A stretch of DNA of 64,000 nt from an uncultured Alphaproteobacteria bacterium (GTDB lineage Bacteria; Pseudomonadota; Alphaproteobacteria; HIMB59; GCA-002718135), in contig CABXJB010000001.1 in assembly GCA_902512415.1 (NCBI GenBank), positions 4,384-68,383 on the forward strand, given 5' to 3'. Of this stretch, positions 1,313 through 40,584 are shown one piece after another. Positions within the stretch are counted from its first letter, which is position 1. The number at the start of each line of letters is the position of its first letter. Both the position numbers and the translations under genes were made by a program. The notes below the pieces were generated by a model that ran no database searches, was not told the DNA's origin, and saw only the letters and a program-made list of their open reading frames with translations.

Positions 1313-2229
1313 TATGCCTTTCTATCTCTTGTTTTTATATAATTTGTTTGACGTAAATATATGATTATTCCTCCAGCGACTATAAATAAAGCACCAGGGA
1401 ACAATTGATCAACTGGCCATTCTTTAAAGAATACCCAGCCTAAAATTAAAGCAAAAAATATTTCAATATAATCAAAGGGCATAATTTTACTAAGTTCTGC
1501 TTTTCTAGAACCATAAATTAATAATAAAACACCTGAACCACCTGCTAAACCCATTATCAACAATATAAGCAAATCATATAAACTTTTGAAATTTTCCCAC
1601 ATATTAAATGTAATAACTAAAAGTATTGCACAGATTAAAGTTCCAATATTAGCGTAAAGATTTATTAATGGCACAGGGGTATCATTTGAAAAATTTAAAG
1701 CTGTTACTCTAGCAAGAGAGTAACCAAAAGCAGCCATTACAGGAAGTAACATATAAAAATTAAAGCTTTCAGACCAAGGTTGCATAATAAATATTATACC
1801 TACAAAACCTGTTAATACGGCTAATGATTTATACCATCCAAATCTTTCACCAAGTAATGGTATTGCTAATAATGTAATCATCATTGGTCCTGTGTACTCC
1901 ATTGTTGCAACCAAAGCATAAGGTAAATAAAGATAAGAGGTATATAAACATAGTTGGGCAAAAGACATAATTAGTCCCCTTGCTAAACCGAAACGCCATC
2001 TTTTTATTACTAATTTTTTTCCACTAGCATGCCAACCTTGTGAAAAATATAATGCAATAAAACATGGTATCATTCCAAACAGATTTCTAAAAACTGATAA
2101 TTGTGCAGCTGGATAATCATCTCTAAGGTATTTTATCGCAATACCCATACAGTCTAATAAAAATAATCCTGATAAGGAAAGGGCAACCGCTAAAAATAAA
2201 TTATTTTTCACCCACAATTCACACAACAT
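1312..2229 (-). CDS. DMT/EamA-family membrane transporter
   Basis: Polytopic hydrophobic protein with two EamA-like halves. Start is ambiguous: ATG 2229 lies inside the tail of the upstream ATPase gene, while GTG 2211 gives a GTGA stop/start overlap. Confidence 0.75.
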   Translation of the reverse strand: MLCELWVKNNLFLAVALSLSGLFLLDCMGIAIKYLRDDYPAAQLSVFRNLFGMIPCFIALYFSQGWHASGKKLVIKRWRFGLARGLIMSFAQLCLYTSYLYLPYALVATMEYTGPMMITLLAIPLLGERFGWYKSLAVLTGFVGIIFIMQPWSESFNFYMLLPVMAAFGYSLARVTALNFSNDTPVPLINLYANIGTLICAILLVITFNMWENFKSLYDLLILLIMGLAGGSGVLLLIYGSRKAELSKIMPFDYIEIFFALILGWVFFKEWPVDQLFPGALFIVAGGIIIYLRQTNYIKTRDRKA

Positions 2230-3200
2230 TGATCAACCCAGTGATTGGGTGAAACTTCTATCAAGCCCATTTCTATATGTCCTTCCTTACAATCATGTGT
2301 AGGGTTAGGACATCTTGTTCTAAATACACACCCTGAAGGAGGATTCATTGCGCTTGGTATTTCTCCTTGAAGCTCAATTGCTTTAGATTTTTTTTCAGGA
2401 TCAATTGATGGAATAGAAGATAATAATGCTTTCGTATAAGAGTGTCTCGGATTACTAAACAACTCTCTTGATGGTGCCATTTCAACAATATGTCCAAGAT
2501 ACATTACCGCTACTATATCACATACATGAGCAACAACACTTAAGTCGTGACTTATAAATAAATATGTTAAATTCAATTCTTGTTGAAGTTGTTTTAAAAG
2601 ATTTAAAATATCTGCTTGTATCGAAACATCTAACGCAGCAACACTTTCATCAGCAACAATAAATTTTGGATTACTTACCAAAGCCCTTGCAATAGAAATA
2701 CGTTGACGCTGTCCACCAGAAAAAGCGTGAGGAAATCTTCTTAAATGTTCAAGATTTAATCGGCATTTTGCAGCAATATCTCGCACTCTTGCATCAGTTT
2801 CCTCTCTAGAATTCGTTATTCTCATTACCTCTAATGGTTCAGCAATTATATCTCTTACCGTCATTCGAGGACTAAGTGCAGCATATGGATCTTGAAAGAT
2901 AAGTTGTGCTTTTTTTCTATACTCTTTCATTTCTTTAGCTGTAATTGATGTTAAGTCAAAATCTCTTTCATCATCATGAAAAATTACATTACCTTCACTA
3001 ACCTTATTCGCGCCTAAGATTGCTCTCCCAAGTGTAGTTTTACCTGATCCAGATTCACCAACCAAACCAAAAAAGGATCCTTTTTTAATTTTGAAATTAA
3101 TATTGTTAACGGCTTTTATTTTTTGTTTTTTTGATAAAAAATTTTCTTGATAATCAAAGGATACAGATAAATTATTTACTGATAGAATATTTTCACTCAT
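2208..3200 (-). CDS. oligopeptide/dipeptide-type ABC transporter ATP-binding protein (OppF/DppF-like) with Cys-rich C-terminal tail
   Basis: Walker A GESGSGKTT, signature FSGGQRQR, Walker B FIVADES. I prefer ATG 3200 (MSENILSV); the 8 codons upstream (MLCELWLS) are read-through of the repeated tail of the neighbouring gene. Confidence 0.9.
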   Translation of the reverse strand: MSENILSVNNLSVSFDYQENFLSKKQKIKAVNNINFKIKKGSFFGLVGESGSGKTTLGRAILGANKVSEGNVIFHDDERDFDLTSITAKEMKEYRKKAQLIFQDPYAALSPRMTVRDIIAEPLEVMRITNSREETDARVRDIAAKCRLNLEHLRRFPHAFSGGQRQRISIARALVSNPKFIVADESVAALDVSIQADILNLLKQLQQELNLTYLFISHDLSVVAHVCDIVAVMYLGHIVEMAPSRELFSNPRHSYTKALLSSIPSIDPEKKSKAIELQGEIPSAMNPPSGCVFRTRCPNPTHDCKEGHIEMGLIEVSPNHWVDQCCVNCG

Positions 3201-3202
3201 AC

Positions 3203-4183
3203 TTAACCACAATTCACACAACATTGATCAACCCAGTGACCTGGACTAACTTCTATTAAACCCATTTCAATACTTCCTTCTTTACACTCATGGGTAGGAT
3301 CTGGGCATCTTGTTCTAAACACACAACCTGTTGGTCTATCCAGAGGACTTGGAATATTACCTGGTATAGGTTTTAATGGTGCATCAAGATTATTAATATC
3401 AGGCAGTGCATTTAATAAACCCCTTGTGTAAGGATGTTTCGGATTTTTTAGAATGTCATTGACTGGACCTCTCTCAACAACACTTCCAAGATACATAACT
3501 GCTACATCATCTGCTACTTGCGCAATAACACCAAGATCATGAGTGATGAATATAACACCCATATTGAATTCTTTAATAATATCTTTCATTAGGTTAATTA
3601 CCTGTGCCTGAATGGTAACATCAAGAGCAGTTGTTGGTTCATCTGCTAATAATAATTTTGGCATAGTAGATAATGCCATAGCTATCATCGCACGTTGTCT
3701 CATGCCCCCAGATAATTCAAAAGCATACTGATTAAATCTCTTTTCAGCATCAGCTATACCAACCCTTATTAACATATCTATTGATATATTTTTAGCCTCT
3801 CCTTTGCCCATAGTTTTATGAAGCATTAATTGTTCAACCATTTGATGACCTATTTTAATTGCTGGCGCAAAACTTGCCATAGGTTCTTGAAAAATCATTG
3901 ATACTTTGCCTCCCCTGATTTTTTTTAAATCATTTTTAGAAGTAAATTTTATAACATTTTCATCATCAATTATTATTTCTGCATTTTCATTATAAATTGT
4001 ATTTCCTGGGTTTAGCTGCATTATAGATTTTGCTGTAACTGACTTACCAGATCCTGACTCACCTACAATTCCCAAAACCTTTCCTTGATCCAATGTAAGG
4101 GAAACATTCTCTATTGCTGTAATACGTCCTTCATCAGTATCAAACTTAACATCTAAATTATTTATTTCTAATAAATGACTCAT
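3203..4183 (-). CDS. oligopeptide/dipeptide-type ABC transporter ATP-binding protein (OppD/DppD-like) with Cys-rich C-terminal tail
   Basis: Walker A GESGSGKSV, signature LSGGMRQR, Walker B LLLADEPTTALD; C-terminal oligopeptide-ABC domain. Confidence 0.9.
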   Translation of the reverse strand: MSHLLEINNLDVKFDTDEGRITAIENVSLTLDQGKVLGIVGESGSGKSVTAKSIMQLNPGNTIYNENAEIIIDDENVIKFTSKNDLKKIRGGKVSMIFQEPMASFAPAIKIGHQMVEQLMLHKTMGKGEAKNISIDMLIRVGIADAEKRFNQYAFELSGGMRQRAMIAMALSTMPKLLLADEPTTALDVTIQAQVINLMKDIIKEFNMGVIFITHDLGVIAQVADDVAVMYLGSVVERGPVNDILKNPKHPYTRGLLNALPDINNLDAPLKPIPGNIPSPLDRPTGCVFRTRCPDPTHECKEGSIEMGLIEVSPGHWVDQCCVNCG

Positions 4184-10196: not shown

Positions 10197-11249
10197 ATGT
10201 TAACTACTGTTATTGGCGCTTATCCTAAACCTAATTATCTAAAAATAACTGATTGGTTTAATGCAGAAGGTGGAACAGATACTGCTAACCCCACGGAGTT
10301 ATATCAAGATGAAATAAAAAAGATGGGGGTTGATGCTGAAGCAATTTTTAAAAAAGCAGCAGCAGAGGTTATTAAAGATCAATTAGATTGCGGAATTGAT
10401 ATTATTACTGATGGTGAAATCAAAAGAGAAAATTATATTCATTATCATTGTAGACATTTAAATGGGATTGATTTTAATACTCTCACAGAAAAAGTAGCTA
10501 GAACAGGAAATTATAAATGTTGGCTACCAACAATAACAAATAAAATTTCAGCAACAGATCCTTTTTTAATTGATGAGTGGATAAGCAATCAGAGCTTATC
10601 AGATAAACCAGTTAAAGTTACTATTCCAGGGCCAATGACAATCGCCGATACCATTGCTAATATATATTACAAATCAGATGAAGAAATGGGTAATGATTTA
10701 GCAATTGCTATTAATGCTGAAATTAAAAGATTAGTAGATGCTGGATGTAAATATATTCAAGTTGATGAACCATTATTTGCAAGAAAACCTGAAAATGCTC
10801 TAGCGTTTGGAATAGAGAATTTAGAAAAATGTTTTGAAGGAATCAATCAGAATAATGTAGAAAAAATCACACATATCTGTTGTGGGTACCCGGATAAACT
10901 TGATGCGGTTGATTATCCTAAAGCACCCTTAGATTCTTATAAAGAAATTGCTAAGTCTCTTGATAATTCAATAATTGATAGCGTATCTATTGAAGATGCA
11001 CATCGCTATAATGATTTAACTTTACTGAAAGATTACAAACAGACAAAAGTAATTTTTGGAGTTATTAAAATTGCGAGTTCTAAAATTGAAACTGTTGCAG
11101 AGATTGAAAGCAGAATTCAAGAAGCACTAAATTTTATCTCCAAAGAGCAATTAATTGCTGCCCCTGATTGCGGTCTTGGACATTTAAGTAGAGAACTTGC
11201 AATGGAGAAATTAAAAATAATGTCTTTAGCTGCAAAAAAATTTTATTAA
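10197..11249 (+). CDS. cobalamin-independent methionine synthase (MetE C-terminal domain)-like Zn thiol-alkyltransferase family protein
   Basis: 350 aa with Zn-ligand motifs H-x-C (THICCGY) and a distal Cys (APDCGLGH); 6-nt gap to the sulfatase-family gene. Confidence 0.75.
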   Translation: MLTTVIGAYPKPNYLKITDWFNAEGGTDTANPTELYQDEIKKMGVDAEAIFKKAAAEVIKDQLDCGIDIITDGEIKRENYIHYHCRHLNGIDFNTLTEKVARTGNYKCWLPTITNKISATDPFLIDEWISNQSLSDKPVKVTIPGPMTIADTIANIYYKSDEEMGNDLAIAINAEIKRLVDAGCKYIQVDEPLFARKPENALAFGIENLEKCFEGINQNNVEKITHICCGYPDKLDAVDYPKAPLDSYKEIAKSLDNSIIDSVSIEDAHRYNDLTLLKDYKQTKVIFGVIKIASSKIETVAEIESRIQEALNFISKEQLIAAPDCGLGHLSRELAMEKLKIMSLAAKKFY

Positions 11250-11262
11250 TTTCTAAAAATAT

Positions 11263-11276
11263 TTGATCTAGATCAA
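11263..11276. promoter_or_regulatory. FNR-type box TTGATctagATCAA (orphan, between convergent genes)
   Basis: Perfect palindrome read directly. TACAAT at 11298-11303 sits where a class II -10 would be. Confidence 0.5.
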
Positions 11277-11345
11277 TTAGTTTTAAGTTTAATAGATTAC
11301 AATTAATACCTTAAACATTTAGTTTCTTCCTATTAAGTTAAAGAT

Positions 11346-11385
11346 TTAACCCCCATCCTTTCTTATGGGGGTTAATTTTATTTAT
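11346..11385. terminator. rho-independent terminator hairpin, possibly bidirectional
   Basis: Stem ttaaccccca (11346-11355) / tgggggttaa (11366-11375), followed on the plus strand by ttttatttat. It also lies immediately 3' of the nirK stop on the minus strand. Confidence 0.65.
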
Positions 11386-12598
11386 CTACTAAGCTCAAAA
11401 GATGTTGCTCATAAGCATTCCAATCAATATCACTTGGCTCTTTTATCTGTTTCATTAAATCATCGTTCCATTTACCATTTACTTGTACTTCTGCTTTTGC
11501 TCCTAAAATAAATGCTTCAATTAAATTATGATTTAAGTACACATAAGTACCTGGTTGATGAAAAGTATATATTGCAGCAGCAGCAGCTCCACCCGGAACA
11601 AACCAAGTTTCCAAATTTGTTCTAGGCGGATCATTGAATGATCCGTTGGGCCATACAAAATCTCCATGTCCGCCAATAAGATGAGGTCGTGTATCTCTAT
11701 TTGATTGAGCATGGATAAATAAAACAGTTTCACCGACCTCGGCAGTCATAGCATTTTCTCCAGTTAAAGAATCAACTGCACCATTAAACACAACATGACT
11801 TGGCGTAAGTGTTCTCATTACCTCTAATGTTTCACTATAACCATCACCTGGTTCCTTAAAAATTTTATAATTTCCATATTCATCTTTTGGAATATAAAAA
11901 TCTTGCTCTCCAATATAATATGCTTTGTCATATCTTATTGGATTGCCATCACGGTCTTTTAATCCATCACGTGGTAATACCATCACAGCACCATTCATAC
12001 CTTTAACGACGTGCCATGGCACCATAGCTCCTCCTGGAGCACAATGATAAACAAAAACTCCTGGCTTAGTAGCTTTCCAACGCAAAATTACTTCCTCACC
12101 TGGTAATACATGTGTTAAACCACCACCTCCAAGAGCTCCTGTAGAAGCATGAAAATCTATATTATGTTGAAAATTATTCTTCTCAGGATTAATCAAAGTT
12201 AATTCTATATAATCCCCTTCATGAACAACAATTATAGGACCTGGAACAGAATCATTAAATGCAAATACTCGAAACTGAGTTCCTTCATCATCAATTTCAA
12301 TAATCTTTTCTTCAATTATCATAGTTACTTTAACTACTTTAGAACTTTGTCCAGCTACCTGATCATGAATAGGAACAAAAGGAGGGGGTAATAACTTTTG
12401 AACAACAACTGGAAGGTTATCAGCCGTATCAGCATTGGCTTTAAAAGAAACTAAAAAAACAATACTGAGAAAAATAACTAATATAAAAAATGCTACTTTG
12501 TTACTAATATTTAGAAAGTCTAAAGAAAACTCTTGCTCTTCAAATTTATCCCATTCATCTTTTTTATTTTCTAAATCAAGTTTATAGTTAATATTCAT
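11378..12598 (-). CDS. nirK: copper-containing nitrite reductase
   Basis: Cu ligand motifs [22 protein letters not shown] and [11 protein letters not shown] prefer ATG 12598, preceded by AGGAGA (12610-12605), over the GTG at 12622 in the ORF track. Confidence 0.9.
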
Positions 12599-12646
12599 AT
12601 CTATTCTCCTTTTTGTAAACACTTACAAGCAAGTAGAGAGATTTTT

Positions 12647-12736
12647 TTGATTAATATCAAAATGCAATCATTTTTGATTAAGATCAAAATTATTTTTGAT
12701 TTGAATCAAACTGAGCATTATTTTGATTAAAATCAA
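12647..12736. promoter_or_regulatory. array of four FNR-type boxes in the divergent nirK / pdxH-like control region
   Basis: TTGATtaatATCAA 12647-12660, TTGATtaagATCAA 12674-12687, TTGATttgaATCAA 12696-12709, TTGATtaaaATCAA 12723-12736. Confidence 0.8.
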
Positions 12737-12768
12737 ATTCTTTCTCCTGAGCAATGATATAAAAAATT

Positions 12769-13386
12769 GTGAACTTTGATCTTGATAAACAAATTTTAAT
12801 TGAAGAAAATAAACAAGGTCCTTTTGAATTATTCTCAAGTTGGTACAAATCGGCAGTAAATAATGAAATTAATAATCCTAATGCAATGAATGTCGCTACT
12901 GTATCAACAAATATGCAGCCTACATCTAGAATGATATTATTAAAAGAATATGATGAATCAGGATTTATATTTAATACAAATATTGAAAGTAATAAATCTA
13001 GAGAAATCGAATCGAATAATCTAGTAGCACTTAATTTTCATTGGAAAAGTCTTCATCGACAAGTGCGAATTCAAGGAAAGGCAGTATTATTAAGTGACAA
13101 AAAAGCAAATCAGTGTTTTAATGATAGACCGAGAGAATCTAAAATAGCTGCATGGGCATCTAAACAATCTGAATTATTACCTAATAGAAAATTGCTTAAT
13201 AAAAGAGTTCATTATTATGAAAATTTTTTTAGTAATATTTCAGTAGAACGACCAAGTTTTTGGTCGGGATATAAAGTCATACCACAATACTTTGAATTCT
13301 GGTGGGATGTAAAATTTAGGCTTCATTATAGAGTTGTTTTTAATAAAAATAAAAAAAAATGGGATAAACATATGCTTTATCCTTGA
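12769..13386 (+). CDS. pdxH: pyridoxamine 5'-phosphate oxidase (PNPOx) family protein
   Basis: 205 aa; PNAMNVATV near the N-terminus and the C-terminal FEFWWDVKFRLHYRVVF...LYP pattern typical of PdxH; GTG start. Confidence 0.75.
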   Translation: MNFDLDKQILIEENKQGPFELFSSWYKSAVNNEINNPNAMNVATVSTNMQPTSRMILLKEYDESGFIFNTNIESNKSREIESNNLVALNFHWKSLHRQVRIQGKAVLLSDKKANQCFNDRPRESKIAAWASKQSELLPNRKLLNKRVHYYENFFSNISVERPSFWSGYKVIPQYFEFWWDVKFRLHYRVVFNKNKKKWDKHMLYP

Positions 13387-13399
13387 TAAAGAATTTGAG

Positions 13400-14029
13400 A
13401 TGTTTGAGTTAGTAAATAATAATTTAGATAAAGTACAATTTGAAACCAAACCATTTAACCATTGGGTTTATGATAAAGTTTTGCCAGAAAATATTGCTAA
13501 TGATCTTTCTGATTTGCCTATTTTACCTTCTTCAATAGATAAAAATAGTGGAAAACGTGATACATATAATACTTCTAGATTATTTTTTAATAAAAGAAAT
13601 TGTAATAAATATTCTTTATTTCGTGATATCGTTATTATTTTTAATAATCTAAAAACAATTATAAAACTTAGTCAAATATGTGGAAGAGATTTATCAAAAG
13701 GTAAGCTAAGAATTGAATATACTTTAGATACCGGGGATTTCTGGTTGGAGCCACATCTTGATATAAAGGAAAAATTATTAACTTTTCTAATTTATTTATC
13801 GAAAGAAAAAGGATCAAATGAATGGGGAACTACCATTTATAATCCAGATTTAAGTGTTTATAAAAAAGTACCCTACAAATTAAATTTAGGCTTTATGTTT
13901 ATGGCTGGAAAAAATACTTGGCATGGTGTGCCAAAACAAAAGATAAAAGGAATTAGAAAATCATTAATAATTAATTATGTTAATAATAATTGGAAAAATA
14001 TGGATGAGCTTTCTACATCTTTCTATTAA
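13400..14029 (+). CDS. 2OG-Fe(II) oxygenase-like protein (putative)
   Basis: H-x-D (EPHLDIKE) and a distal His (NTWHGVP) in a double-stranded beta-helix-like context. ATG 13400 chosen because the track start 13334 overlaps the pdxH-like gene. Confidence 0.45.
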   Translation: MFELVNNNLDKVQFETKPFNHWVYDKVLPENIANDLSDLPILPSSIDKNSGKRDTYNTSRLFFNKRNCNKYSLFRDIVIIFNNLKTIIKLSQICGRDLSKGKLRIEYTLDTGDFWLEPHLDIKEKLLTFLIYLSKEKGSNEWGTTIYNPDLSVYKKVPYKLNLGFMFMAGKNTWHGVPKQKIKGIRKSLIINYVNNNWKNMDELSTSFY

Positions 14030-14032
14030 TTT

Positions 14033-14821
14033 TTAATAATAATTACTTAGTGAATTTTTCATTTCCTTACTTAGTGCAAGCCATTCTTGAGCATAGATTT
14101 CATCTTGTTTATTTAGAGGTTCCCAAATTTTACCTCTGAACCACGGACCACCTCTTGTAAAATGAACATTTTTTGCATTTAAAGATTCAGGAGAATGACC
14201 ATCTAACCAATTCCATTCTTCATGTAATTTTCCTATTTCATTATCTTTTAACCACATAAAGTTATGCAACCATAATCCAGACTTTGTATTTATATCATCA
14301 ACTGTATAATTATTATGTCCTTTGTGACTGCAGTTAAACATTATAACAGATGACCAATTTTTTCGTGAATATTGATATTGTTCATTGCCGTACATTTTAT
14401 GTTTTTCTGTTGGAGCATAATTATGTTTTACACAATAAATCGCATACTTTGGATCGTTATATTCCTTAAATAAATCCAATGGATCTGATCTAAAAAACAT
14501 ATCGCAGTCCATAAAGAGGGCCCATCCTTCTAATCTGTGAAGAAAAGGTGTTAAAAAACGTGAAAAAGAAAAATCAGTAGCAAAAGGTTTTTCATCAAAA
14601 ATATCACGGTGTTGCAGATCATTATTATTTATTGGTTTTGGTAATGATGAACTTCCAAGTTGCCAAGCACGTCGATATAAACCAATTCTTCTTAATTGAC
14701 TCTGCTTAATAGGGTATACATTAAGTGGTCCTGAAGCGTATTTATATGCTGAATATTTTAATACTTTATACGCAAGATCTTCTCTTGGATCATATCCAAT
14801 ATAGATGGTAGGTATATCCAT
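14033..14821 (-). CDS. nucleotide-diphospho-sugar transferase-like protein (DxD motif), function unknown
   Basis: MDCDMFF DxD-type motif. ATG 14821 (MDIPTIYIGYDP) abuts the stop of the upstream gene at 14823; the longer track start lies inside that gene. Confidence 0.4.
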   Translation of the reverse strand: MDIPTIYIGYDPREDLAYKVLKYSAYKYASGPLNVYPIKQSQLRRIGLYRRAWQLGSSSLPKPINNNDLQHRDIFDEKPFATDFSFSRFLTPFLHRLEGWALFMDCDMFFRSDPLDLFKEYNDPKYAIYCVKHNYAPTEKHKMYGNEQYQYSRKNWSSVIMFNCSHKGHNNYTVDDINTKSGLWLHNFMWLKDNEIGKLHEEWNWLDGHSPESLNAKNVHFTRGGPWFRGKIWEPLNKQDEIYAQEWLALSKEMKNSLSNYY

Positions 14822-14822
14822 A

Positions 14823-15446
14823 CTATTTGAAATCATTATATTTTGAAAATTTATCAATATTAAAGCTAATAATAACTCTATCTTCTTTTGAAAGGTTAGG
14901 TTCAACCCAATGCTTTACATAACTAGGAAACATAGCTAATAATCCTGTTTTTGGCTCAATAGCAACTTGTTGTTCATTTAGTGAATTTACCTTATCGCAA
15001 ATAGGATGATAATATAATGAAGTCTCTCTTGGGTCTTCAGCTATGAATCTACCTCCATTTTTTGGAAATTTTACATAATAAGCTGCACTAATTAAATTAT
15101 TACTATGTATATGTGATTGATTGCAAGCTAGTGGAGGGTTAATAATAGCCCAAGTATTAGTAATTTTATAATGGTGGCGCGTTTTATTCCAACTCATATC
15201 TTTTGATACCTGTGCCAAATTAGAGGAGATTTTATTAAAAAAATTCTGATGTGGTTGAGATTTTGTAATATCAATATTTTTGCTATGCCAACCCAGCATA
15301 TTGGACCTTTTAATTCCTTTTGGATCTTTTTTTCTTAAATCATATATATATTTTAATAAATCTTTATTTATTTTTGACACATTGTCTAACGGCGACACCC
15401 ATATAGGGGTTGCAAATTTTTTAAGTAAATCAATTTTATTTTTCAA
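14823..15446 (-). CDS. 2OG-Fe(II) oxygenase superfamily protein (TIGR02466-like), function unknown
   Basis: HIHSNN...AAYYV and the C-terminal MFPSYVKHWVEPN...RVIISFN pattern that I associate with this family. Confidence 0.5.
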   Translation of the reverse strand: MKNKIDLLKKFATPIWVSPLDNVSKINKDLLKYIYDLRKKDPKGIKRSNMLGWHSKNIDITKSQPHQNFFNKISSNLAQVSKDMSWNKTRHHYKITNTWAIINPPLACNQSHIHSNNLISAAYYVKFPKNGGRFIAEDPRETSLYYHPICDKVNSLNEQQVAIEPKTGLLAMFPSYVKHWVEPNLSKEDRVIISFNIDKFSKYNDFK

Positions 15447-15466
15447 ATTTTTATAAGAAATTATGA

Positions 15467-15667
15467 TTATGGTTTCGAAAATTTATCAAAGTAAAAATCT
15501 CTTTCAACATCTGATGTTTTATTATTTATAAGATGTTGATCCCTTATTTGTAATTTTTCTAGTTTAGAAATAAAGGGAGGAGAAGAACGCCATCCATAAG
15601 AGATTAATTTATCATCTTGAGTTTTATATAATGTTAAAAATCTAAATTTATTAATTCTTTTTTTCAT
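15467..15667 (-). CDS. small hypothetical protein (66 aa)
   Basis: ATG 15667 is preceded by AGGAGA (15679-15674). It is first in a three-gene minus-strand unit behind an FNR box. Confidence 0.4.
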   Translation of the reverse strand: MKKRINKFRFLTLYKTQDDKLISYGWRSSPPFISKLEKLQIRDQHLINNKTSDVERDFYFDKFSKP

Positions 15668-15713
15668 ATATTTTCTCCTTTCTATTAATTTACAACAATA
15701 GAAAAAAGAATTT

Positions 15714-15754
15714 TTGATCAACATCAATTTAAGTTTTAATTTGATCTGTATCAA
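15714..15754. promoter_or_regulatory. two FNR-type boxes (divergent promoters)
   Basis: TTGATcaacATCAA 15714-15727 and TTGATctgtATCAA 15741-15754; centres 27 bp apart. Confidence 0.75.
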
Positions 15755-15794
15755 ATTATTTTATTATTATTATAAAGAGAATAAAATAATAAAA

Positions 15795-15884
15795 ATGAAC
15801 ATTAGAGTATCTGGTTTAACGTCTGGTATTTTAGGTGCCTTGTATGTTTTAATCATTACATGGTGGTTAATAATTTATGATTAA
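15795..15884 (+). CDS. candidate 29-aa hydrophobic micro-protein
   Basis: Own translation MNIRVSGLTSGILGALYVLIITWWLIIYD. ATG is 47.5 bp from the centre of box 15741-15754. Below the ORF-track length cut-off. Confidence 0.25.
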   Translation: MNIRVSGLTSGILGALYVLIITWWLIIYD

Positions 15885-16009
15885 TAGAAACTATGTATAA
15901 GTAAATAAAAAAAAATATATAAAACTACAAATATCAAAACTGCAATTGCAAATTCAAAAAAACCCGAGCTTTGATGTTCATCATTATTAATGTTATGATT
16001 ATTATTCAT
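15881..16009 (-). CDS. candidate 42-aa single-TM micro-protein
   Basis: Own translation MNNNHNINNDEHQSSGFFEFAIAVLIFVVLYIFFYLLIHSFY. ATG is 41.5 bp from the centre of box 16044-16057. Confidence 0.25.
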   Translation of the reverse strand: MNNNHNINNDEHQSSGFFEFAIAVLIFVVLYIFFYLLIHSFY

Positions 16010-16043
16010 AAGTATTCAAATACAAACTATAGAAATTTTTGAT

Positions 16044-16112
16044 TTGATTTTGATCAAAGAAGTAGTTATTTTGATTTGAGTCAATTCTTCTTAATAATTT
16101 GATTTAAATCAA
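16044..16112. promoter_or_regulatory. three FNR-type boxes
   Basis: TTGATtttgATCAA 16044-16057, TTGATttgaGTCAA 16071-16084 (1 mismatch), TTGATttaaATCAA 16099-16112; centre spacing 27 and 28 bp. Confidence 0.75.
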
Positions 16113-16145
16113 ATTATACTTCTTTATTTTTTGTATTATGAGTTA

Positions 16146-16700
16146 ATGAATTACTTTCAAGCAATGTTATGTCCTTCAGTAATTTTAAAGACAAGAATAG
16201 GTGATGATAAAATACTTGGTGGAGGTTGTGCAATAGGAGGCACATGGAAAGACATTAACACTGATGTATTATTTAAAGATAAGAGGATAGTGATATTTTC
16301 TTTACCTGGCGCATACACCCCAACCTGCTCATCACAACAGGTACCAGGATATGAAGAAAAGTATGATGAGTTAAGAAAATTTGTACATGAAGTTTATTGC
16401 GTATCAGTAAATGATGCCTTTGTAATGAATGCGTGGTTTCGAGATCAAAAAATATACAAAGTAAAGCCAATTGGAGATGGAGAAGGTAAATTTACAAAAG
16501 GCATGAATATGCTTGTCAATAAACCAAAACAAGGATTTGGTATGCGTTCGTGGAGATATTCAGCTCTAGTAGAAGATGGTAAAGTTATTAAATTATTTAT
16601 TGAGGAAGGAAAAAATGACAACAGTAATGATAATGATCCTTTTAAGGTATCAGATGCTGATACAATGCTTCGTTTTCTTCAAGAAAGAATGAATTATTAA
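16146..16700 (+). CDS. peroxiredoxin, Prx5 (type 5 / AhpC-TSA) subfamily
   Basis: Active-site motif PGAYTPTCSSQQVPGY. Start is uncertain (TTG 16131, ATG 16146 or ATG 16164); 16146 is chosen from promoter geometry (TGTATTAT extended -10 at 16132-16139). Confidence 0.85.
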   Translation: MNYFQAMLCPSVILKTRIGDDKILGGGCAIGGTWKDINTDVLFKDKRIVIFSLPGAYTPTCSSQQVPGYEEKYDELRKFVHEVYCVSVNDAFVMNAWFRDQKIYKVKPIGDGEGKFTKGMNMLVNKPKQGFGMRSWRYSALVEDGKVIKLFIEEGKNDNSNDNDPFKVSDADTMLRFLQERMNY

Positions 16701-16702
16701 TA

Positions 16703-16873
16703 TTAGTGTACGGCAGTTATTTTTTCTCTTCCAGAAAATATGTTTTTCCTGATTTCTGTTATTTTTTCTTGAGAATAACCGTGTCCGATCACTAAGTGTT
16801 TATCAGAAAATGAGACTGATCTAGTTACAATTACTAAGAGGATAATGATTATGATTAAAGGAATATATTTCAT
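16703..16873 (-). CDS. small membrane-anchored/secreted hypothetical protein (56 aa)
   Basis: MKYIPLIIIIILLVIVTRSV... from ATG 16873. The longer track ORF would run through the FNR boxes. Confidence 0.4.
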   Translation of the reverse strand: MKYIPLIIIIILLVIVTRSVSFSDKHLVIGHGYSQEKITEIRKNIFSGREKITAVH

Positions 16874-16906
16874 ATTTTGTGTATACAAAAAATTTATGTT
16901 TGAGAT

Positions 16907-16947
16907 TTGATTTAAATCAAAAAAGGATTTGTTTTGATACAAATCAA
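16907..16947. promoter_or_regulatory. two FNR-type boxes (divergent promoters)
   Basis: TTGATttaaATCAA 16907-16920 and TTGATacaaATCAA 16934-16947; centres 27 bp apart. Confidence 0.75.
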
Positions 16948-16981
16948 TTATCAAGAATAAAAATATATTAAGTTAATCTAT

Positions 16982-17170
16982 ATGCTTTCACTCCAAGCAA
17001 TCATTGCCTTAACATATGTTCCTTCTGTGCCACTCATTGCGTTTTCTGTAGTTGCGGGCATGGAAAATAATCCTAAAGCACAGAAATGGTACGGTTTTTT
17101 TGGGGGTGTTTTTTTTGTTATTGCTACTGTTGCCTATGTTTTTTTTCTTGGTGAACTTTTATCAAACTAG
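16982..17170 (+). CDS. small two-TM membrane protein (62 aa), function unknown
   Basis: Two hydrophobic segments (LIAFSVVAG, GGVFFVIATVAYVFFLG). ATG is 41.5 bp from the box centre. Confidence 0.4.
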   Translation: MLSLQAIIALTYVPSVPLIAFSVVAGMENNPKAQKWYGFFGGVFFVIATVAYVFFLGELLSN

Positions 17171-17664
17171 GGTGAGAGATTAATTTGTAAACAAGTAGGG
17201 TTTATTCTTTTAGCGCCTGCCTCTTGTAGAAATAATGCGTACCAATCATTTTCTTTTATATCATAGATTTTAATTGTTGAACATTTTAGATCTATTCCTA
17301 ATCTAATTATATACTCTATAAACTGTTTCAATACTTTCTGACGCCCAATTGGTCCAGGAATAATAATATGCTCAATTATTAATTTTTTTTTGTGATCTGC
17401 ACAGCAAGTAAAAAGGCCATGAATATAATCATTGGTGCTTCTGGCAATAATAATATCTTGAAAAGTAGTTTGCTGTTTTGCATATTGCTTTAATTTATAA
17501 GGAGACATATTGCTCCATAATTTTAAAAAATTATCTATAGTGCAATTTGGTTTATGTTCTTGAAAAAGAGAAAAAGTTTTACTGATATGACAGCGACCCA
17601 TTGGTGTAATAAGGAGTTTATTTAGAGTTTCATATTTATCTTTAGCTACACGTTCTACTGTCAT
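17167..17664 (-). CDS. hypothetical protein (165 aa)
   Basis: Intact ORF convergent with the 62-aa gene (4-nt overlap); no motif I can assign. ATG is 40.5 bp from the centre of box 17698-17711. Confidence 0.5.
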   Translation of the reverse strand: MTVERVAKDKYETLNKLLITPMGRCHISKTFSLFQEHKPNCTIDNFLKLWSNMSPYKLKQYAKQQTTFQDIIIARSTNDYIHGLFTCCADHKKKLIIEHIIIPGPIGRQKVLKQFIEYIIRLGIDLKCSTIKIYDIKENDWYALFLQEAGAKRINPTCLQINLSP

Positions 17665-17697
17665 AATTTGAATTTACACGGTTATAAGTTTAAAACT

Positions 17698-17711
17698 TTG
17701 ATTTAGATCAA
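17698..17711. promoter_or_regulatory. FNR-type box shared by the divergent 165-aa gene and the fnr-like gene
   Basis: TTGATttagATCAA read directly. Confidence 0.7.
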
Positions 17712-17750: not shown

Positions 17751-18485
17751 ATGGAGCATAGAATGGAACCAGTTGCAAGTTGTACAACAAAGAATAAAAA
17801 CAATAATCATAGGTGCGCTCAATGCTCTGTACGCCTAATTGCTTTTTGTGGTATTCTAGATGACAGTGATATTATACAATTAGAAGCAATATCTAAAAAT
17901 ATATCTTTTCCCAAAGGAACAAATATTTTCTTTCAAGGTGATCAAGTTAAAACATTCTTCAATATTAAACAAGGAAGTATAAAAATATACAAACTTTCAC
18001 ATGATGGAAGAAAACAAATTGTAGGTTTTTTGTATCCTGGGGATTTTTTAGGTATGTCAGATCAAGAAGTTTATACTTACAATGCAGAAGCTTTAGAAGA
18101 TACGCAACTGTGTCAATTCAATAAAATAGTTCTAGAGAATTTTTTTCTTAAATTTCCTAAGATTGAAAATAAAATACTTAATTTGGTTAATCATGAACTA
18201 GCAGTTGCGCAGGATCAAATTTTTCTTTTGGGAAAATATTCTGCGAGAGAACGCTTATTACAATTTTTCTTGAACATATCGAATCAGCGTGAGAAACTAG
18301 GATGGGGAGGCAACCCTATTCGTCTCAGTATGCCAAGATCTGATATAGCCAACTATTTAGGACTGACCATTGAGACAGTTAGCAGAACGCTTGCCGATCT
18401 TAAGAACGAGCAAATTATTAAAATGTTAGGGACTCAAGATATTTTTTTGAATAATAAGGATGAAATTCCACAGTATTTGTCCTAG
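17751..18485 (+). CDS. fnr: CRP/FNR-family transcription regulator, FnrL/FnrN-type (putative [4Fe-4S] O2 sensor)
   Basis: N-terminal C-x2-C-x7-C (CAQCSVRLIAFC) plus a further Cys upstream and a central Cys (TQLCQF); cNMP-like beta-roll; HTH with the ETVSR recognition motif. Start may be 17730, 17751 or 17763. Confidence 0.85.
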   Translation: MEHRMEPVASCTTKNKNNNHRCAQCSVRLIAFCGILDDSDIIQLEAISKNISFPKGTNIFFQGDQVKTFFNIKQGSIKIYKLSHDGRKQIVGFLYPGDFLGMSDQEVYTYNAEALEDTQLCQFNKIVLENFFLKFPKIENKILNLVNHELAVAQDQIFLLGKYSARERLLQFFLNISNQREKLGWGGNPIRLSMPRSDIANYLGLTIETVSRTLADLKNEQIIKMLGTQDIFLNNKDEIPQYLS

Positions 18486-34744: not shown

Positions 34745-35164
34745 TTATTTAAATTTTATTCCCATTTGTTGTAAGACTGAATAATTATCAACCATAACAA
34801 AGTTTTCAGAAAATTTACCATTTTTGATTAGCCAAAAGTCTGAAAATTGCATCTTAATTGGTTTTCCTGTTGCCTGAATATCTAAATACGTGCCGCTGTG
34901 TGTTCCTGTTAAATAACCTGTAGCACTTGCCCAATTTTCATCTGCCACCACAATATCATTTTCAACGTAATAATCTGGAAAAGCTGCATAAAAAGGCTTC
35001 ATCACTTGCTCTTTAAAATTTTCTAAGCCATGAATGTCTCCAAATCCTGGAGGTCCATGCCAAATCATATCTTGATGCCAATATTTATCATGCGCATTTA
35101 AATCTTTCGAATTTAAAGCAACATACATATCTTCAACTAATTTTTTGTTAAATTCAGCACTCAT
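34745..35164 (-). CDS. SnoaL-like / predicted ester cyclase (NTF2-like fold), single domain
   Basis: 139 aa with the pattern ...HGPPGFGDIHGLENFK...GTHSGTYLDIQATGKPIKMQFSDFWLIKNGKFSENF, typical of COG5485-type SnoaL-like proteins. Confidence 0.65.
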   Translation of the reverse strand: MSAEFNKKLVEDMYVALNSKDLNAHDKYWHQDMIWHGPPGFGDIHGLENFKEQVMKPFYAAFPDYYVENDIVVADENWASATGYLTGTHSGTYLDIQATGKPIKMQFSDFWLIKNGKFSENFVMVDNYSVLQQMGIKFK

Positions 35165-36301
35165 TTATTTATCTCCTAATAACTGCATAAGAATTCCAAA
35201 TTCATTAAACGCTGTCCATTCTTTAATAATTTTATTATTTTCAATTTGCCACTGAGTAATACCCCAAATATAACATTCTTTATCAGTCGGCGCTCCATAA
35301 TAACCATTGCCTTTATGCGCTCCAATAGCCCCCCAACGTATGGATACTAAATATCCATCTTGTTCATTACCCATCCAATATATATCTTCAATACTAAGAG
35401 CGAGATCTGGAAAAGAGGCAATGATTGAAATTATAAAACTTCTTACCTGTTTTTTTCCTTTAAATAGACGGCCTGTTGAACCTTCAAAAACAATATTGTC
35501 AGAATAAACATGATCAATTGCAGAAAAATTTCTTCTATTCCAGATTGTATTAAAAATAGAATGAACAAACTCTCTAACATTTGAAACTTTTTCTGGAATT
35601 TCAAAACTTATTGGTTTTGCTTTACCAGTTTTTCTTTTTGGTTTTAAGTTTTTAAAATCTGGAGCAAATGGTCCTATTCCTCCTTTATTAGCAATGTCTT
35701 TTGCTACTTGATTAACATTTAATCCTAATTGTTTTATCAAGGCAGCGGTATCATAAACAACATTTTCATAATAAATTTCATTATTTTTTGCTACACAGTT
35801 TGCAATACAAAACAACCTTACAGATTTGCCTGTTGGTTCAGAAAATTTACTATAACCTGTATTTGTTCCAGTAATTATTGTTCTATGAGACGTGTGAAAA
35901 CTTGCATTGTCATCTCCAGCCCAAATAACTTCATCAGCAAAAAGTCGAATGTCAGGAAAAGCATTATTTGTATGAACTGTATCAGCAACAATTTTTTCAG
36001 ATCCTGACTGTAAGCCAAATTCATCCCAAACACGACAATTGTTACTGTAAGTATCATATATGTATCCAATGTTTTTATCTTCCCAAATGTGGTAGGTAAT
36101 TCTTACGATATAATCGATGATATTTTTATATTGTACTTCAAAACCTTTCATTGATTGTGACTTCAATTTTTTAGGGATTGGGTTTAAAGATTTAGCTGTT
36201 CCACCACCACCATATGCTTTTAATGAAATATCAAAATTATTAGGCATATGACGATCTTTTAAAGCTAGCGGTCTTCGATCTTTTATTTTTTTGTTCTTCA
36301 T
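35165..36301 (-). CDS. tandem SnoaL-like (NTF2-like) domain protein
   Basis: Two SnoaL-like halves; clear paralogue of 38561..39550 (MKGF, ITY-IWE, FPD, VIW-G-D, SHR, A-C-AKNN-Y-E). Alternative start is ATG 36151 (MKGFEVQ), which matches the paralogue's N-terminus. Confidence 0.6.
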   Translation of the reverse strand: MKNKKIKDRRPLALKDRHMPNNFDISLKAYGGGGTAKSLNPIPKKLKSQSMKGFEVQYKNIIDYIVRITYHIWEDKNIGYIYDTYSNNCRVWDEFGLQSGSEKIVADTVHTNNAFPDIRLFADEVIWAGDDNASFHTSHRTIITGTNTGYSKFSEPTGKSVRLFCIANCVAKNNEIYYENVVYDTAALIKQLGLNVNQVAKDIANKGGIGPFAPDFKNLKPKRKTGKAKPISFEIPEKVSNVREFVHSIFNTIWNRRNFSAIDHVYSDNIVFEGSTGRLFKGKKQVRSFIISIIASFPDLALSIEDIYWMGNEQDGYLVSIRWGAIGAHKGNGYYGAPTDKECYIWGITQWQIENNKIIKEWTAFNEFGILMQLLGDK

Positions 36302-36372
36302 AAATTTTTAGACTTCAGATTAGTATTAATAAGGTTTTGATACAATTAAAATATTTCAATGCAATGAAATTT

Positions 36373-36390
36373 TATGCAAATAATTGAATA
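36373..36390. promoter_or_regulatory. 18-bp near-palindrome TATGCAAataaTTGAATA, candidate operator (1 mismatch to the other two copies)
   Basis: Read directly; lies in the divergent intergenic region 36302-36430. Confidence 0.45.
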
Positions 36391-36430
36391 TTTTGCTTTT
36401 ATTTTTTTGTATTTGTAATAAGAAATTTTT

Positions 36431-37432
36431 ATGACTGACTTACAACAAGAAAAACAATTGGTTTTAGATTTTGTAAATAATATTGATAAAACTGAAAACA
36501 AACATCTTGCTGAAACAATTTCTAAATTTACCTCTGATGATTTTCATATGAGATGTACTCATCCTTTTAATGAGCTTAAAGGGGCAGACAATGTTGCCAA
36601 TGATCTATGGATACCAATTAAAAATTCTTTTATGCCTATCCAAAGAAGAATGGATATTTTTTATGCTGGCACAAACTTAATAGACAATCATTCTTCAAAA
36701 TGGGTTGTTAATATGGGTCACTTACTTGGTATATTTAATCATTCCTTTTTAGGTATAGTGCCAACAAACAAAGCTGTAATGTTATGGTACTGTGAATTTT
36801 ATAAAGTTGAAAACAATAAAATTACAGAGGGTGCTTTTTTTCTTGATATAATGAAGTTTATGCAACAATTACAACTTCCTATTATTCCGGATTCAACTGG
36901 AATGATTGGTTTTAATGCAGGCCCAATGACTCACGATGGTCTTTACTTCAATAAACAACCTGAAGCGGAAGGGCAGAAAACTTTAGATCTTATGATGCAA
37001 ATGGCTAATAGATTGGTTGGAGGCGGAATGAAGACAACAGTTCCAGATTTAGAAAAAGATTGGCATAAAGATATGATTTGGTGGGGACCTGGTGGCATTG
37101 GTGCGTCGTATACTTATGAAGGATATTTAAAAGGACATACTGGCCCTTTTGAAGAAGGGTTAGATTATATTGAATTTACAGGTCATAAGCTTGAAAATGC
37201 AGAAGGAAATTATGGCGGATGGTTTGGTTGGCCTAATTTAAAAATGAAACCTAAAAGTAATTATATGGGACTTACATCGAGCTCAGACAAAATAGGAGAG
37301 ATGAGAGTTGTAGATCTTTATAGAAGAGATGGCGATAAATTAGCTGAAAACTGGATTTTTATTGATCATTTACATTTCTTAAAGTGTGTTGGTGTTGATT
37401 TACTTCAACGAAACAACCAATTAAATAATTAA
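36431..37432 (+). CDS. NTF2-like (SnoaL-related) two-domain protein, function unknown
   Basis: 333 aa; paralogue of 40639..41733 (KDMIWWGPGGIG vs KKMMWYGPCGIG; ENWIFID vs ENWVPID). Confidence 0.5.
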   Translation: MTDLQQEKQLVLDFVNNIDKTENKHLAETISKFTSDDFHMRCTHPFNELKGADNVANDLWIPIKNSFMPIQRRMDIFYAGTNLIDNHSSKWVVNMGHLLGIFNHSFLGIVPTNKAVMLWYCEFYKVENNKITEGAFFLDIMKFMQQLQLPIIPDSTGMIGFNAGPMTHDGLYFNKQPEAEGQKTLDLMMQMANRLVGGGMKTTVPDLEKDWHKDMIWWGPGGIGASYTYEGYLKGHTGPFEEGLDYIEFTGHKLENAEGNYGGWFGWPNLKMKPKSNYMGLTSSSDKIGEMRVVDLYRRDGDKLAENWIFIDHLHFLKCVGVDLLQRNNQLNN

Positions 37433-38556
37433 ATAACTTTTGAAGCTAGCTTCGTGCCCTCAACTAATGCATGGAGTTTCTCATAACATATATTTTCATC
37501 TATTTTTCCAAAGCCTGCAAATGTACTGAAACCACAATCTGTTCCTGCCATTAATTGTTCTTTTGGAATCACTGTTGAAAATTGAATTAATCTATCAGCT
37601 ACAACTTCTGGATGTTCTACAAAATTTGACGTTGAATCAATTAAGCCAGGGACAAGAATTTTATCTTTAGGAAGTTTAATATCTTTAAATATTTTCCATT
37701 CATGCGAATGTCTAGGATTTGACGATTCAATTAAAAAATATTTCACTTTTGCCTTCAAAATTATCGGAAGTATTTTTTCTAGACTAATATCATGAGTGTG
37801 AGGACCTTCATAATTACCCCAACATATATGCATACGCACCATATCACTTTGCACATCAACTAAAGAATTATTTAAGTATTCAATTTGCTTTTCTGCCTTT
37901 TTTAAAAAATCTTCATCTGACAAAGATTTATAACTCATATGTCTTGCTAGAGCCAAGTCAGGACAATCTAATTGTAATTGAATATTAGCTTTTGTTATTG
38001 CTTTATATTCATTTGCCATAAGGAAAGACAATTTTTCCATATATTCATCATCATCCTTATAAAATTTATTTGGCATGAATACTGAAATTACTCCTGGAGA
38101 TGCAGCGTTCATAAAACCTCTCTGATGATTTGCTTTTTGTAACGCTTTACTAAAATTTCCAATATCTTTATGTAGTGAATCATCATCCTTCAGTTCCAAA
38201 TTACTTGTGCAACATGGACGTGTATATGTAGGAGTTCCGCCGCTTTGTGCTATTTTTTCTTTATAGTTTGGAAAATCATCTAAGTCTGCTGGCGCTCTTC
38301 TTTCACTTTCTCCAGAAAAACCATGTAGTCGATCTTTTACATAAGTAGCATAGCTTATTTTGCTCATTTCACCATCGCTAACAAAATCTATACCGACATC
38401 TAGTTGTTTATTAACGACCTGCTCGACGTTTTTCTTAACCACATCTTGAAATAAGTTACTATCAAATGACTCGCCTTTATCTTTATTAAACAATAATTCT
38501 GATAATTCTTTAGAGCGAGGTAAACTGCCTACATGCGTTGTTAAAATAGATGTCAT
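37429..38556 (-). CDS. cobalamin-independent methionine synthase (MetE C-domain)-like Zn thiol-alkyltransferase family protein
   Basis: N-terminus MTSILTTHVGSLPRS; Zn ligand motifs H-x-C (MHICWGN) and distal Cys (GTDCGFS). Confidence 0.75.
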   Translation of the reverse strand: MTSILTTHVGSLPRSKELSELLFNKDKGESFDSNLFQDVVKKNVEQVVNKQLDVGIDFVSDGEMSKISYATYVKDRLHGFSGESERRAPADLDDFPNYKEKIAQSGGTPTYTRPCCTSNLELKDDDSLHKDIGNFSKALQKANHQRGFMNAASPGVISVFMPNKFYKDDDEYMEKLSFLMANEYKAITKANIQLQLDCPDLALARHMSYKSLSDEDFLKKAEKQIEYLNNSLVDVQSDMVRMHICWGNYEGPHTHDISLEKILPIILKAKVKYFLIESSNPRHSHEWKIFKDIKLPKDKILVPGLIDSTSNFVEHPEVVADRLIQFSTVIPKEQLMAGTDCGFSTFAGFGKIDENICYEKLHALVEGTKLASKVI

Positions 38557-38560
38557 AAAT

Positions 38561-39550: not shown

Positions 39551-39562
39551 ATTTATTGAAAG

Positions 39563-40531: not shown

Positions 40532-40558
40532 ATCTATACTATAAATTATTCATTTTTT

Positions 40559-40584
40559 TTGAATATTATTCAATATATTGAATA
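40559..40584. promoter_or_regulatory. overlapping palindromes TTGAATAtTATTCAA and TATTCAAtataTTGAATA, candidate operator
   Basis: Read directly (40559-40573 and 40567-40584); lies in the divergent intergenic region 40532-40638. Confidence 0.5.

Follow-up and report, generated by a model that had tools for sequence, protein, structure and literature searches.

A class I copper nitrite reductase with a conserved N-terminal extension on a proposed FNR-controlled island of SAR11

SAR11 is among the most abundant groups of marine bacteria, and the timing and manner in which it produces the copper nitrite reductase NirK bear on marine nitrogen loss and on the production of nitric oxide (NO) and N2O. 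At the top of the ETNP (Eastern Tropical North Pacific) oxygen-deficient zone, SAR11-linked nirK (OTU I) reached ~21% of the community (Fuchsman 2017; PMC5723336), while ten SAR11 isolates from the northern Benguela, reported together with related metagenome-assembled genomes (MAGs) from Saanich Inlet, carry a nirK-cbb3 region, a crp-fnr gene and pseudoazurin and lack NO reductase (NOR) (Morris 2026; PMC12816887). An orphan nirK in SAR11 is thus already published (Fuchsman 2017; Morris 2026), as is the proposal that SAR11 reduces nitrite without Nor at low O2 (PMC5723336, PMC12816887). Here we examine a nirK gene in a 64 kb stretch of DNA (the window), of which two features appear to be unreported: a conserved N-terminal extension of NirK, and a self-contained FNR module in which the gene lies. 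There is no mention of a leader peptide, a peroxiredoxin or FNR binding sites in PMC12816887, and literature searches turned up nothing relevant on a NirK with a transmembrane helix, nor on an FNR or leaderless regulon in Pelagibacter.

The explanation that best accounts for our observations, to which we give a probability of roughly 0.6, is that the gene encodes an FNR-induced, Sec-exported and cleaved periplasmic class I NirK on a mobile low-oxygen island. The initial annotation of this DNA had raised an 'unrecognised electron sink' as one possible role, which overstates the case since nitrite reduction by Nor-less SAR11 had already been proposed.

The enzyme and its host

The features of the nirK gene and its immediate surroundings are as follows.

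11378-12598, minus strand: nirK coding sequence, class I two-domain Cu nitrite reductase, 406 amino acids (aa) plus stop (from TIGR02376, 1AQ8 and the ligands)
11381-12430, minus strand: predicted mature periplasmic enzyme, codons 57-406 (from the 1AQ8 alignment and dN/dS, the ratio of nonsynonymous to synonymous substitution rates)
12431-12496, minus strand: signal-peptide core and c-region KANA, codons 35-56, with predicted cleavage after Ala56 (from hydropathy, alignment with plain leaders and the -3/-1 rule)
12497-12598, minus strand: acidic N-terminal extension, codons 1-34 (at least six lineages, invariant residues, NirK only)
12606-12610, minus strand: Shine-Dalgarno (SD) sequence AGGAG, 7 nt ahead of the nirK ATG (from the sequence)
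12620-12627, minus strand: predicted extended -10 element TGTAAGTG (from class II FNR geometry, which puts the nirK transcription start near 12612)
12647-12736, no strand: four tandem FNR boxes (12647, 12674, 12696, 12723) between the divergent nirK and pdxH
11346-11375, no strand: GC-rich hairpin directly past the nirK stop, with a T-rich tail on the plus strand (from a terminator scan and the sequence)

The minus-strand open reading frame (ORF) spans 11378-12622, with the nirK ATG inside it at 12598. Its product scores 481 bits against TIGR02376, the NCBIfam equivalog for copper-containing nitrite reductase (cutoff 296.3), over profile positions 6-325 of 326. The closest solved structure is the Alcaligenes faecalis nitrite reductase 1AQ8 (E = 1e-153, 66% identity over 336 residues), which residues 54-389 match end to end, and alignments to the NirK chains of 7QXK, 8RFV and 6THF extend to residue 399. 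Pfam recognizes only Cu-oxidase (multicopper-oxidase) domains, at residues 113-384; together with the 1AQ8 alignment this describes two cupredoxin domains, without a fused cytochrome c or an additional cupredoxin domain. A 15-residue C-terminal tail completes the protein, and some relatives lack it.

With site numbering transferred from A. faecalis through the 1AQ8 alignment, the type 1 copper (T1Cu) ligands are H145, C186, H196 and M201 (His95, Cys136, His145 and Met150 in A. faecalis), the type 2 copper (T2Cu) ligands are H150, H185 and H357 (His100, His135 and His306), and the catalytic residues are D148, H306 and I308 (Asp98, His255 and Ile257). Every one of these positions is invariant in an alignment of 36 relatives. 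The initial annotation was right that the copper motifs are intact; its list of motifs, while sound in substance, counted the first His of HLIGGHGD, which is the equivalent of catalytic His255 and not a ligand, and left out the third T2Cu ligand, in LNHNLIEAF. Pairwise dN/dS for the mature part is 0.014-0.07, placing nirK under strong purifying selection. Given the full ligand set and these ratios, the protein looks functional as a class I (two-domain, trimeric) Cu nitrite reductase, in agreement with what the initial annotation had supposed.

The window has a G+C content of ~31% and includes aprAB, tig-clpP-clpX-lon and nuoA-D. The nearest relatives of its NirK are metagenomic proteins with 94-98% identity. 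One close relative, present on 78 contigs, is named 'nitrite reductase, copper-containing [Pelagibacteraceae bacterium]', and a NirK annotated to a Pelagibacteraceae MAG is 95% identical to that of the window. A scan of a genome collection returned a single close genome, a Saanich Inlet Pelagibacteraceae MAG (L001, an 8 kb contig). From the 95%-identical Pelagibacteraceae NirK and the presence of aprAB, tig-clpPX-lon and nuo, we assign the host to SAR11 (Pelagibacteraceae).

Proposed FNR control, N-terminal extension and predicted export signal

The palindrome TTGAT-N4-ATCAA, the FNR box, occurs in 12 perfect copies in the window compared with 0.53 expected, all of them within 11263-17711 (6.5 kb), and a thirteenth box with one mismatch lies at 16071. 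The boxes are paired 27 bp apart, each pair serving two divergent genes from about -41.5 and -68.5. All SAR11-type nirK loci checked have perfect boxes (2-8 per locus), while 79 non-SAR11 loci have 0-3. The last of the boxes precedes the gene of a candidate regulator.

17698-17711 (box) and 17763-18485 (gene), plus strand: FNR box and FnrL/FNR-like regulator, 240 aa, with cNMP-binding and HTH_Crp_2 domains

The regulator scores 151 bits against FnrL and 144 bits against Fnr, both under the equivalog cutoffs, and we therefore call it FNR-like rather than a curated equivalog. It aligns to Aliivibrio fischeri FNR with the C-x2-C-x7-C arrangement, the central Cys and an ETVSR recognition helix, so that its four Cys are positioned for a [4Fe-4S] cluster; binding to the boxes is inferred. 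The box upstream of fnr itself suggests autoregulation. For many island genes, in several lineages, the distance from box centre to ATG is 40.5-42.5 nt, and five island ATGs lie 40.5-41.5 nt away, a spacing that points to leaderless mRNAs from class II FNR promoters. Short SD leaders precede nirK, a 66-aa gene and fnr.

Comparison among contigs indicates that nirK sits on a mobile low-oxygen island of ~7 kb. The same cassette with its boxes recurs in Saanich-type contigs, where the flanking genes are entirely different, and in L081 the island adjoins a tRNA-Arg gene (11451-11527). Smaller variants hold only nirK, fnr, a 165-aa gene and a 62-aa gene. A second island type, in which NirK has a plain leader, matches the layout of the published isolates, with pseudoazurin downstream. 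The L089 variant (1672-3684) has an extension-type NirK that is 78% identical, and also encodes pseudoazurin (ATG 40.5 nt from a box centre), behind which lies a lone 520-aa A-type haem-copper oxidase subunit I (COX1; motifs GHPEVY and HHMF), with no subunit II or III nearby. In a plain-leader locus (L091; 2130-4958), phage-like genes (DNA polymerase A and small terminase) lie ~1.5 kb from the island. Carriage of the island by phage was considered and set aside, since two scans of a viral contig collection found no NirK, and an adjacent prophage is the more likely reading of L091.

At nirK the first two boxes lie at about -41.5 and -68.5, and the TGTAnnnn -10 element recurs at other island promoters. 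L081 and plain-leader loci likewise have a box pair 26-27 bp apart upstream of nirK; in the other extension-type loci the spacing is 22-49 bp. In three independent lineages of plain-leader nirK the ATG stands 40.5-41.5 nt from the box centre, which under a class II FNR promoter would have the transcript start at its own ATG, i.e. leaderless. In all extension-type loci the ATG stands at +53.5 to +55.5 behind a purine-rich SD, kept before the same ATG in every one of them. The in-frame upstream starts that certain gene callers prefer (giving 413-414 aa; GTG at 12622 here) precede the putative transcription start. The extension clade thus differs by ~115 nt between promoter and signal peptide, made up of a 12-14 nt SD leader and 34 codons.

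As the initial annotation described, the protein begins with some 30 acidic residues before a hydrophobic segment (34 residues, then V35-F52). Residues 1-34 include nine Asp/Glu and five Lys. The extension is kept in at least six lineages whose mature domains are 78-98% identical, with M1, D14, W16, F19 and E20 invariant and with in-frame indels (a 7-aa duplication in P0014 and a 1-aa insertion in L095); its dN/dS, mostly 0.12-0.74, is like that of a signal peptide and far above that of the enzyme. In a neighbour-joining tree built on the mature domain, the NirKs with the extension fall into one clade nested among plain-leader types, which indicates that it was gained once and then kept. When 1.84 billion representative proteins were searched with a profile of the extension, ten matches resulted, all of them N-terminal fragments of NirK, from which we take the extension to be specific to this NirK clade; the same result rules it out as a general targeting motif on other proteins.

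Relatives at 75-82% identity are 361-376 aa long and open at once with a short plain leader (e.g. MRSKKLLFFVFIFIVILSTSYLKVNA followed by DEADNLPVV). These leaders align with the hydrophobic core and c-region of NirK in the window, which makes the remainder an n-region addition of ~30 residues. Ordinary leaders in close relatives, which the initial annotation had named as one part of what would refute its reading, do occur, but the extension is a trait both conserved and monophyletic, not an artefact of annotation. We propose that it is an extended n-region of the signal peptide, gained once along with a switch from leaderless to SD-led translation.

The export signal has the layout of a Sec signal peptide: K34, an 18-residue hydrophobic core (V35-F52; Kyte-Doolittle mean of 2.74 over 19 residues) and a c-region K-A-N-A followed by D-T-A-D-N-L-P, with A-N-A ahead of the predicted cleavage site and D directly behind it. 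All of 70 distinct NirK-family leaders have Ala or Ser at position -1, and 69 of them have A, I, V, S, G or T at position -3. This cleavage motif is kept although the leader otherwise drifts quickly (dN/dS 0.15-0.96). The uncharged stretch averages 19 residues in the extension clade and 18.7 in plain-leader relatives, and the conserved mature N-terminus follows the predicted cleavage site at a distance of only ~5 residues. Export by the twin-arginine translocation (Tat) route was rejected, as no RR occurs within the first 60 residues (motif S/T-R-R-x-F-L-K), and so was lipoprotein anchoring, as no Cys, and hence no lipobox, occurs within the first 70. On these sequence features we favour a Sec signal peptide that has an extended n-region and is cleavable, an anchor being less likely. 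The membrane anchor with a cytoplasmic tail predicted in the initial annotation is accordingly not the reading we favour, given the alignment with plain leaders, the conserved -1 and -3 positions, the equal length of the stretch and the ~5-residue spacer.

Proposed mechanism and alternative readings

The sequence of events that we propose would begin with falling O2, which would activate the island's own FnrL-type regulator. The regulator would bind the TTGAT-N4-ATCAA boxes centred about -41.5 and -68.5 of nirK, and the mRNA would be made with a 12-14 nt SD leader. The 406-aa precursor would insert N-in through Sec, probably via the signal recognition particle given its very hydrophobic core, and signal peptidase I would cut after Ala56. 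A soluble periplasmic NirK of ~350 residues (a trimer) would be released, acquire Cu and take electrons from a periplasmic cytochrome c or cupredoxin encoded outside the window. It would reduce nitrite to NO as an auxiliary electron sink at the oxic-anoxic interface. Prx5-type enzymes reduce peroxynitrite, and the co-regulated Prx5-type peroxiredoxin of the island would plausibly remove peroxide or peroxynitrite arising where NO meets traces of O2. The co-regulation of nirK with this peroxiredoxin, suggested in the initial annotation, is plausible through the shared type of FNR-box promoter; the two genes lie 3.5 kb apart and do not form one operon, the link between them being the common regulator.

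Several points weigh against this explanation. The NirK hydrophobic core is 18 residues long compared with 12-15 in the signal peptides of the window's two solute-binding proteins. The extension has a net charge of -4, which is atypical for an n-region, and the usual positive charge comes from Lys34 alone. If it were merely cut off and degraded, the conservation of a cytoplasmic extension would be difficult to account for. Transcription starts were placed by E. coli-type class II geometry, and an AlphaFold2 model of full-length NirK (from the 36-sequence alignment) reached a predicted local distance difference test score (pLDDT) of 47, which makes it unusable. Finally, the window supplies neither an electron donor nor an NO-consuming enzyme, so that respiratory use is read from context and from published work.

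One elaboration of the cleaved-signal reading, to be counted as a sub-case of it with a specific role added, holds that the extension acts before export in the manner of autotransporter signals, slowing or re-routing Sec targeting or aiding SD-led initiation, and is later removed. The layout resembles that of long autotransporter signals (PMC2805444), with a charged N1 segment (1-23), a weakly hydrophobic H1 (FSLDFLNI), an N2 (SNK), then H2 and C. The gain of the extension along with the switch from a leaderless ATG (+40.5 to +41.5) to an SD leader (ATG at +53.5 to +55.5) is likewise in keeping with such a role. No similarity to the extended signal peptide region (ESPR) was found, however, as Pfam on full-length NirK (E <= 0.01) returned Cu-oxidase domains only, and the profile search placed the extension on NirK alone. 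We offer this role tentatively, as a possibility well short of even odds.

Retention of the segment as a signal anchor would keep NirK attached to the inner membrane, and its 34-residue tail in the cytoplasm might bring the enzyme close to bc1 or cytochrome c, or make contact with a partner there. An anchor would be suited by an 18-residue stretch of Kyte-Doolittle mean 2.74 that exceeds the cores of the solute-binding proteins (12-15 residues), and the invariance of W16, F19 and E20 and retention in six lineages speak for a function of the tail; tethered NirKs also exist in other forms, such as the lipoprotein AniA (PMC6277709, PMC5542605). On the other hand, the cleavage motif persists in all leaders while neighbouring residues drift, plain-leader relatives have an equally long uncharged stretch, and the extension evolves as fast as a signal peptide (dN/dS ~0.1-0.7). 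The ~5-residue link that would join membrane to fold also falls far short of a lipoprotein-type tether. An uncleaved anchor is therefore rather doubtful. A broader claim, that this SAR11 NirK clade alone has in the extension a functional module, whether a type II inner-membrane tether or a new pre-export control element, we regard as improbable on balance. A tether, if true, would place nitrite reduction beside the respiratory chain in a very small periplasm, and with either a tether or a control element an abundant ocean nitrite reductase would be deployed unlike those of model denitrifiers. The extension also offers a sequence marker separating two SAR11 nirK ecotypes in metagenomes.

The role of the enzyme was considered in the light of its potential partners. 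A Pfam scan of the ~60 ORFs across the 64 kb found no nor, nar, nos, nnrS or nirV, as the initial annotation had said of the window, and no cbb3 oxidase or pseudoazurin/cupredoxin; nor did the window contain a genuine CxxCH (c-type) cytochrome ORF. The 64 kb thus holds no classical denitrification cluster, i.e. nirK together with nirV, nnrS, nnrR, nor, nar or nos. The lack of nor, of a dedicated electron donor and of a cbb3 oxidase in the window would fit a role of NirK in nitrite detoxification or NO signalling rather than in energy-conserving respiration, as would co-regulation of nirK with a peroxiredoxin, and the SAR11 isolate genomes lack NOR as well (PMC12816887). Against this, control appears to lie with an O2-sensing FNR rather than with a sensor of nitrite or NO, the pseudoazurin and terminal-oxidase genes found on sister islands (PMC12816887) provide a respiratory context, and SAR11-linked nirK peaks atop oxygen-deficient zones (PMC5723336). 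Detoxification or signalling is, in our judgement, unlikely to be the main role.

Least credible by far is a mis-called start codon, with the true start near Ile31 (ATT), an ordinary leader and the 'extension' as untranslated 5' sequence: a peptide from near Ile31 would make a textbook signal peptide and plain-leader relatives exist, but codons 2-57 of nirK contain no canonical in-frame start (ATG, GTG or TTG), no SD precedes codon 31, a strong SD stands before the 12598 ATG in every lineage, the frame is open throughout with the in-frame indels of P0014 and L095, the invariant residues are conserved at the protein level, and the Ile codon is missing in lineage F, so that a start near Ile31 was rejected.

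Other features and comparison with known systems

Beyond nirK and the regulator, the island contains the following features.

11263-11276, no strand: isolated FNR box at the island edge on the nirK side
12769-14029, plus strand: pdxH, pyridoxine/pyridoxamine phosphate (PNP/PMP) oxidase (TIGR00558, 224 bits), then a 209-aa protein weakly resembling 2-oxoglutarate (2OG)-Fe(II) oxygenases (PF13640, weak)
14033-15667, minus strand: likely operon of a 66-aa protein, a TIGR02466-family 2OG-Fe(II) oxygenase and a ~267-aa protein without assigned function
15714-16112, no strand: FNR boxes 15714, 15741, 16044, 16071 (one mismatch) and 16099
15795-15884, plus strand: small membrane-protein ORF, 29 aa
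15881-16009, minus strand: small membrane-protein ORF, 42 aa, with its ATG (16009) 40.5-41.5 nt from a box centre
16146-16700, plus strand: Prx5-type peroxiredoxin with the motif PGAYTPTCS (PF08534, E = 1.6e-23)
16703-17170: divergent membrane proteins of 56 aa (minus strand, start 16873) and 62 aa (plus strand, start 16982) around boxes 16907 and 16934
17167-17664, minus strand: 165-aa protein with a candidate GNAT fold, divergent from fnr over the common box 17698, its ATG (17664) 40.5-41.5 nt from the box centre

Since the peroxiredoxin ATG (16146) and a box centre are 40.5 nt apart, its mRNA should be leaderless; the pdxH ATG has the same spacing in L089, L090 and L099. In the likely operon at 14033-15667, box 15714 lies 53.5 nt from an SD-bearing ATG. 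The ATGs of the 56-aa and 62-aa genes are again 40.5-41.5 nt from a box centre, and both genes are also called in L081-L088. Four very small membrane proteins (29, 42, 56 and 62 aa; 15795-17170) are thus predicted, each directly behind an FNR box. A set of O2-consuming enzymes (pdxH, the TIGR02466-family 2OG-Fe(II) oxygenase and the weaker 2OG-like protein; 12769-15446) stands under what would be an anaerobic activator, and their anaerobic induction may raise the enzyme level to offset scarce O2.

The 165-aa protein has no Pfam or NCBIfam match and only 20 homologues, all of them marine. Its AlphaFold2 model has a pLDDT of 72, and nearly all of its best Foldseek matches among PDB structures are GNAT acetyltransferases (TM-scores ~0.5), which indicate a divergent GNAT acetyltransferase fold. 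The gene is paired with fnr over a common box in nearly every island variant, minimal islands included (L099 being an exception).

At the nirK edge of the island, the isolated box 11263-11276, a TACAAT at 11298-11303 and the hairpin at 11346-11375 outline a possible FNR-dependent RNA of ~75 nt on the plus strand (window positions 11263-11386), with a predicted start near 11310. The fold z-score of this candidate is -3.8 and the T-rich tail of the hairpin is on the plus strand only; conservation extends over ~135 nt in L081 and L001, with one mismatch in the box. An Rfam scan of the window returned four tRNAs only, the candidate having no match. Pairing of the candidate with the nirK ribosome-binding site (-10.3 kcal/mol) was discarded, being equalled by 19% of background windows.

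Elsewhere in the window, two short stand-alone MetE-like proteins (10197-11249 and 37429-38556) consist of the catalytic domain of cobalamin-independent methionine synthase only, and one of the two genes is convergent with nirK. At 34745-43016 lies a dense cluster of five SnoaL-like-domain proteins, in some of which more than one stretch matches. A MetE-like protein, a bicupin and a histidinol-dehydrogenase-family enzyme are encoded in between, and the cluster adjoins a LacI regulator and an ABC sugar transporter. A 706-aa ammonium transporter fused to a C-terminal SpoIIE/PP2C phosphatase domain is encoded at 49179-51299 on the minus strand.

Compared with the SAR11 isolates and Saanich MAGs, the window shares the organism group, the class I enzyme, nearby crp-fnr and Fe(II)/2OG oxygenase genes, and the lack of NOR. 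One of the Saanich MAGs cited in PMC12816887 (GCA_018649225.1; L086) has this same cassette, its NirK being 95% identical to that of the window. The isolate island has cbb3 oxidase and pseudoazurin genes, whereas the window has neither, and a plain-leader locus with the gene order of the isolates (L091) is apparently leaderless and lacks the extension.

Among characterized class I NirKs, structures are known for A. faecalis (1AQ8), Achromobacter cycloclastes (1NIA) and Alcaligenes xylosoxidans (1HAU). The window NirK is 66% identical over the mature domain, with identical T1Cu and T2Cu ligands and equivalents of Asp98, His255 and Ile257, but differs in its Sec-type leader with a 34-residue pre-extension and no twin-arginine, in its 15-residue C-terminal tail and in its AT-rich streamlined host. 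The nearest precedent for a membrane-attached NirK would be the lipoprotein-tethered AniA of Neisseria (PMC6277709, PMC5542605); unlike AniA, the window NirK has no lipobox, no Cys in the first 70 residues and no flexible linker, and its attachment, if any, would be to the inner membrane through a helix. With the long signals of autotransporters and two-partner secretion (TPS) proteins that carry an ESPR (PMC2805444), it shares additional charged and weakly hydrophobic segments ahead of an ordinary n-h-c signal peptide, but the sequences are not similar, and the extension here is acidic, belongs to a periplasmic redox enzyme and is confined to one NirK clade.

Like the anaerobic regulons of FNR, FnrL and FnrP (class II), the island combines TTGAT-N4-ATCAA boxes, cluster-ligand Cys, an E--SR recognition helix and a box at fnr itself. 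It differs from them in that nirK would be directly under the O2 sensor, the window encoding no NO sensor of the NnrR/Dnr type, in that most of the island transcripts are apparently leaderless, and in that the whole regulon of the window lies within ~7 kb, with shared bidirectional box pairs 27 bp apart. The analysis yields a testable regulatory model, in which a compact mobile FNR module would tie NirK to a peroxiredoxin and to O2-dependent enzymes.

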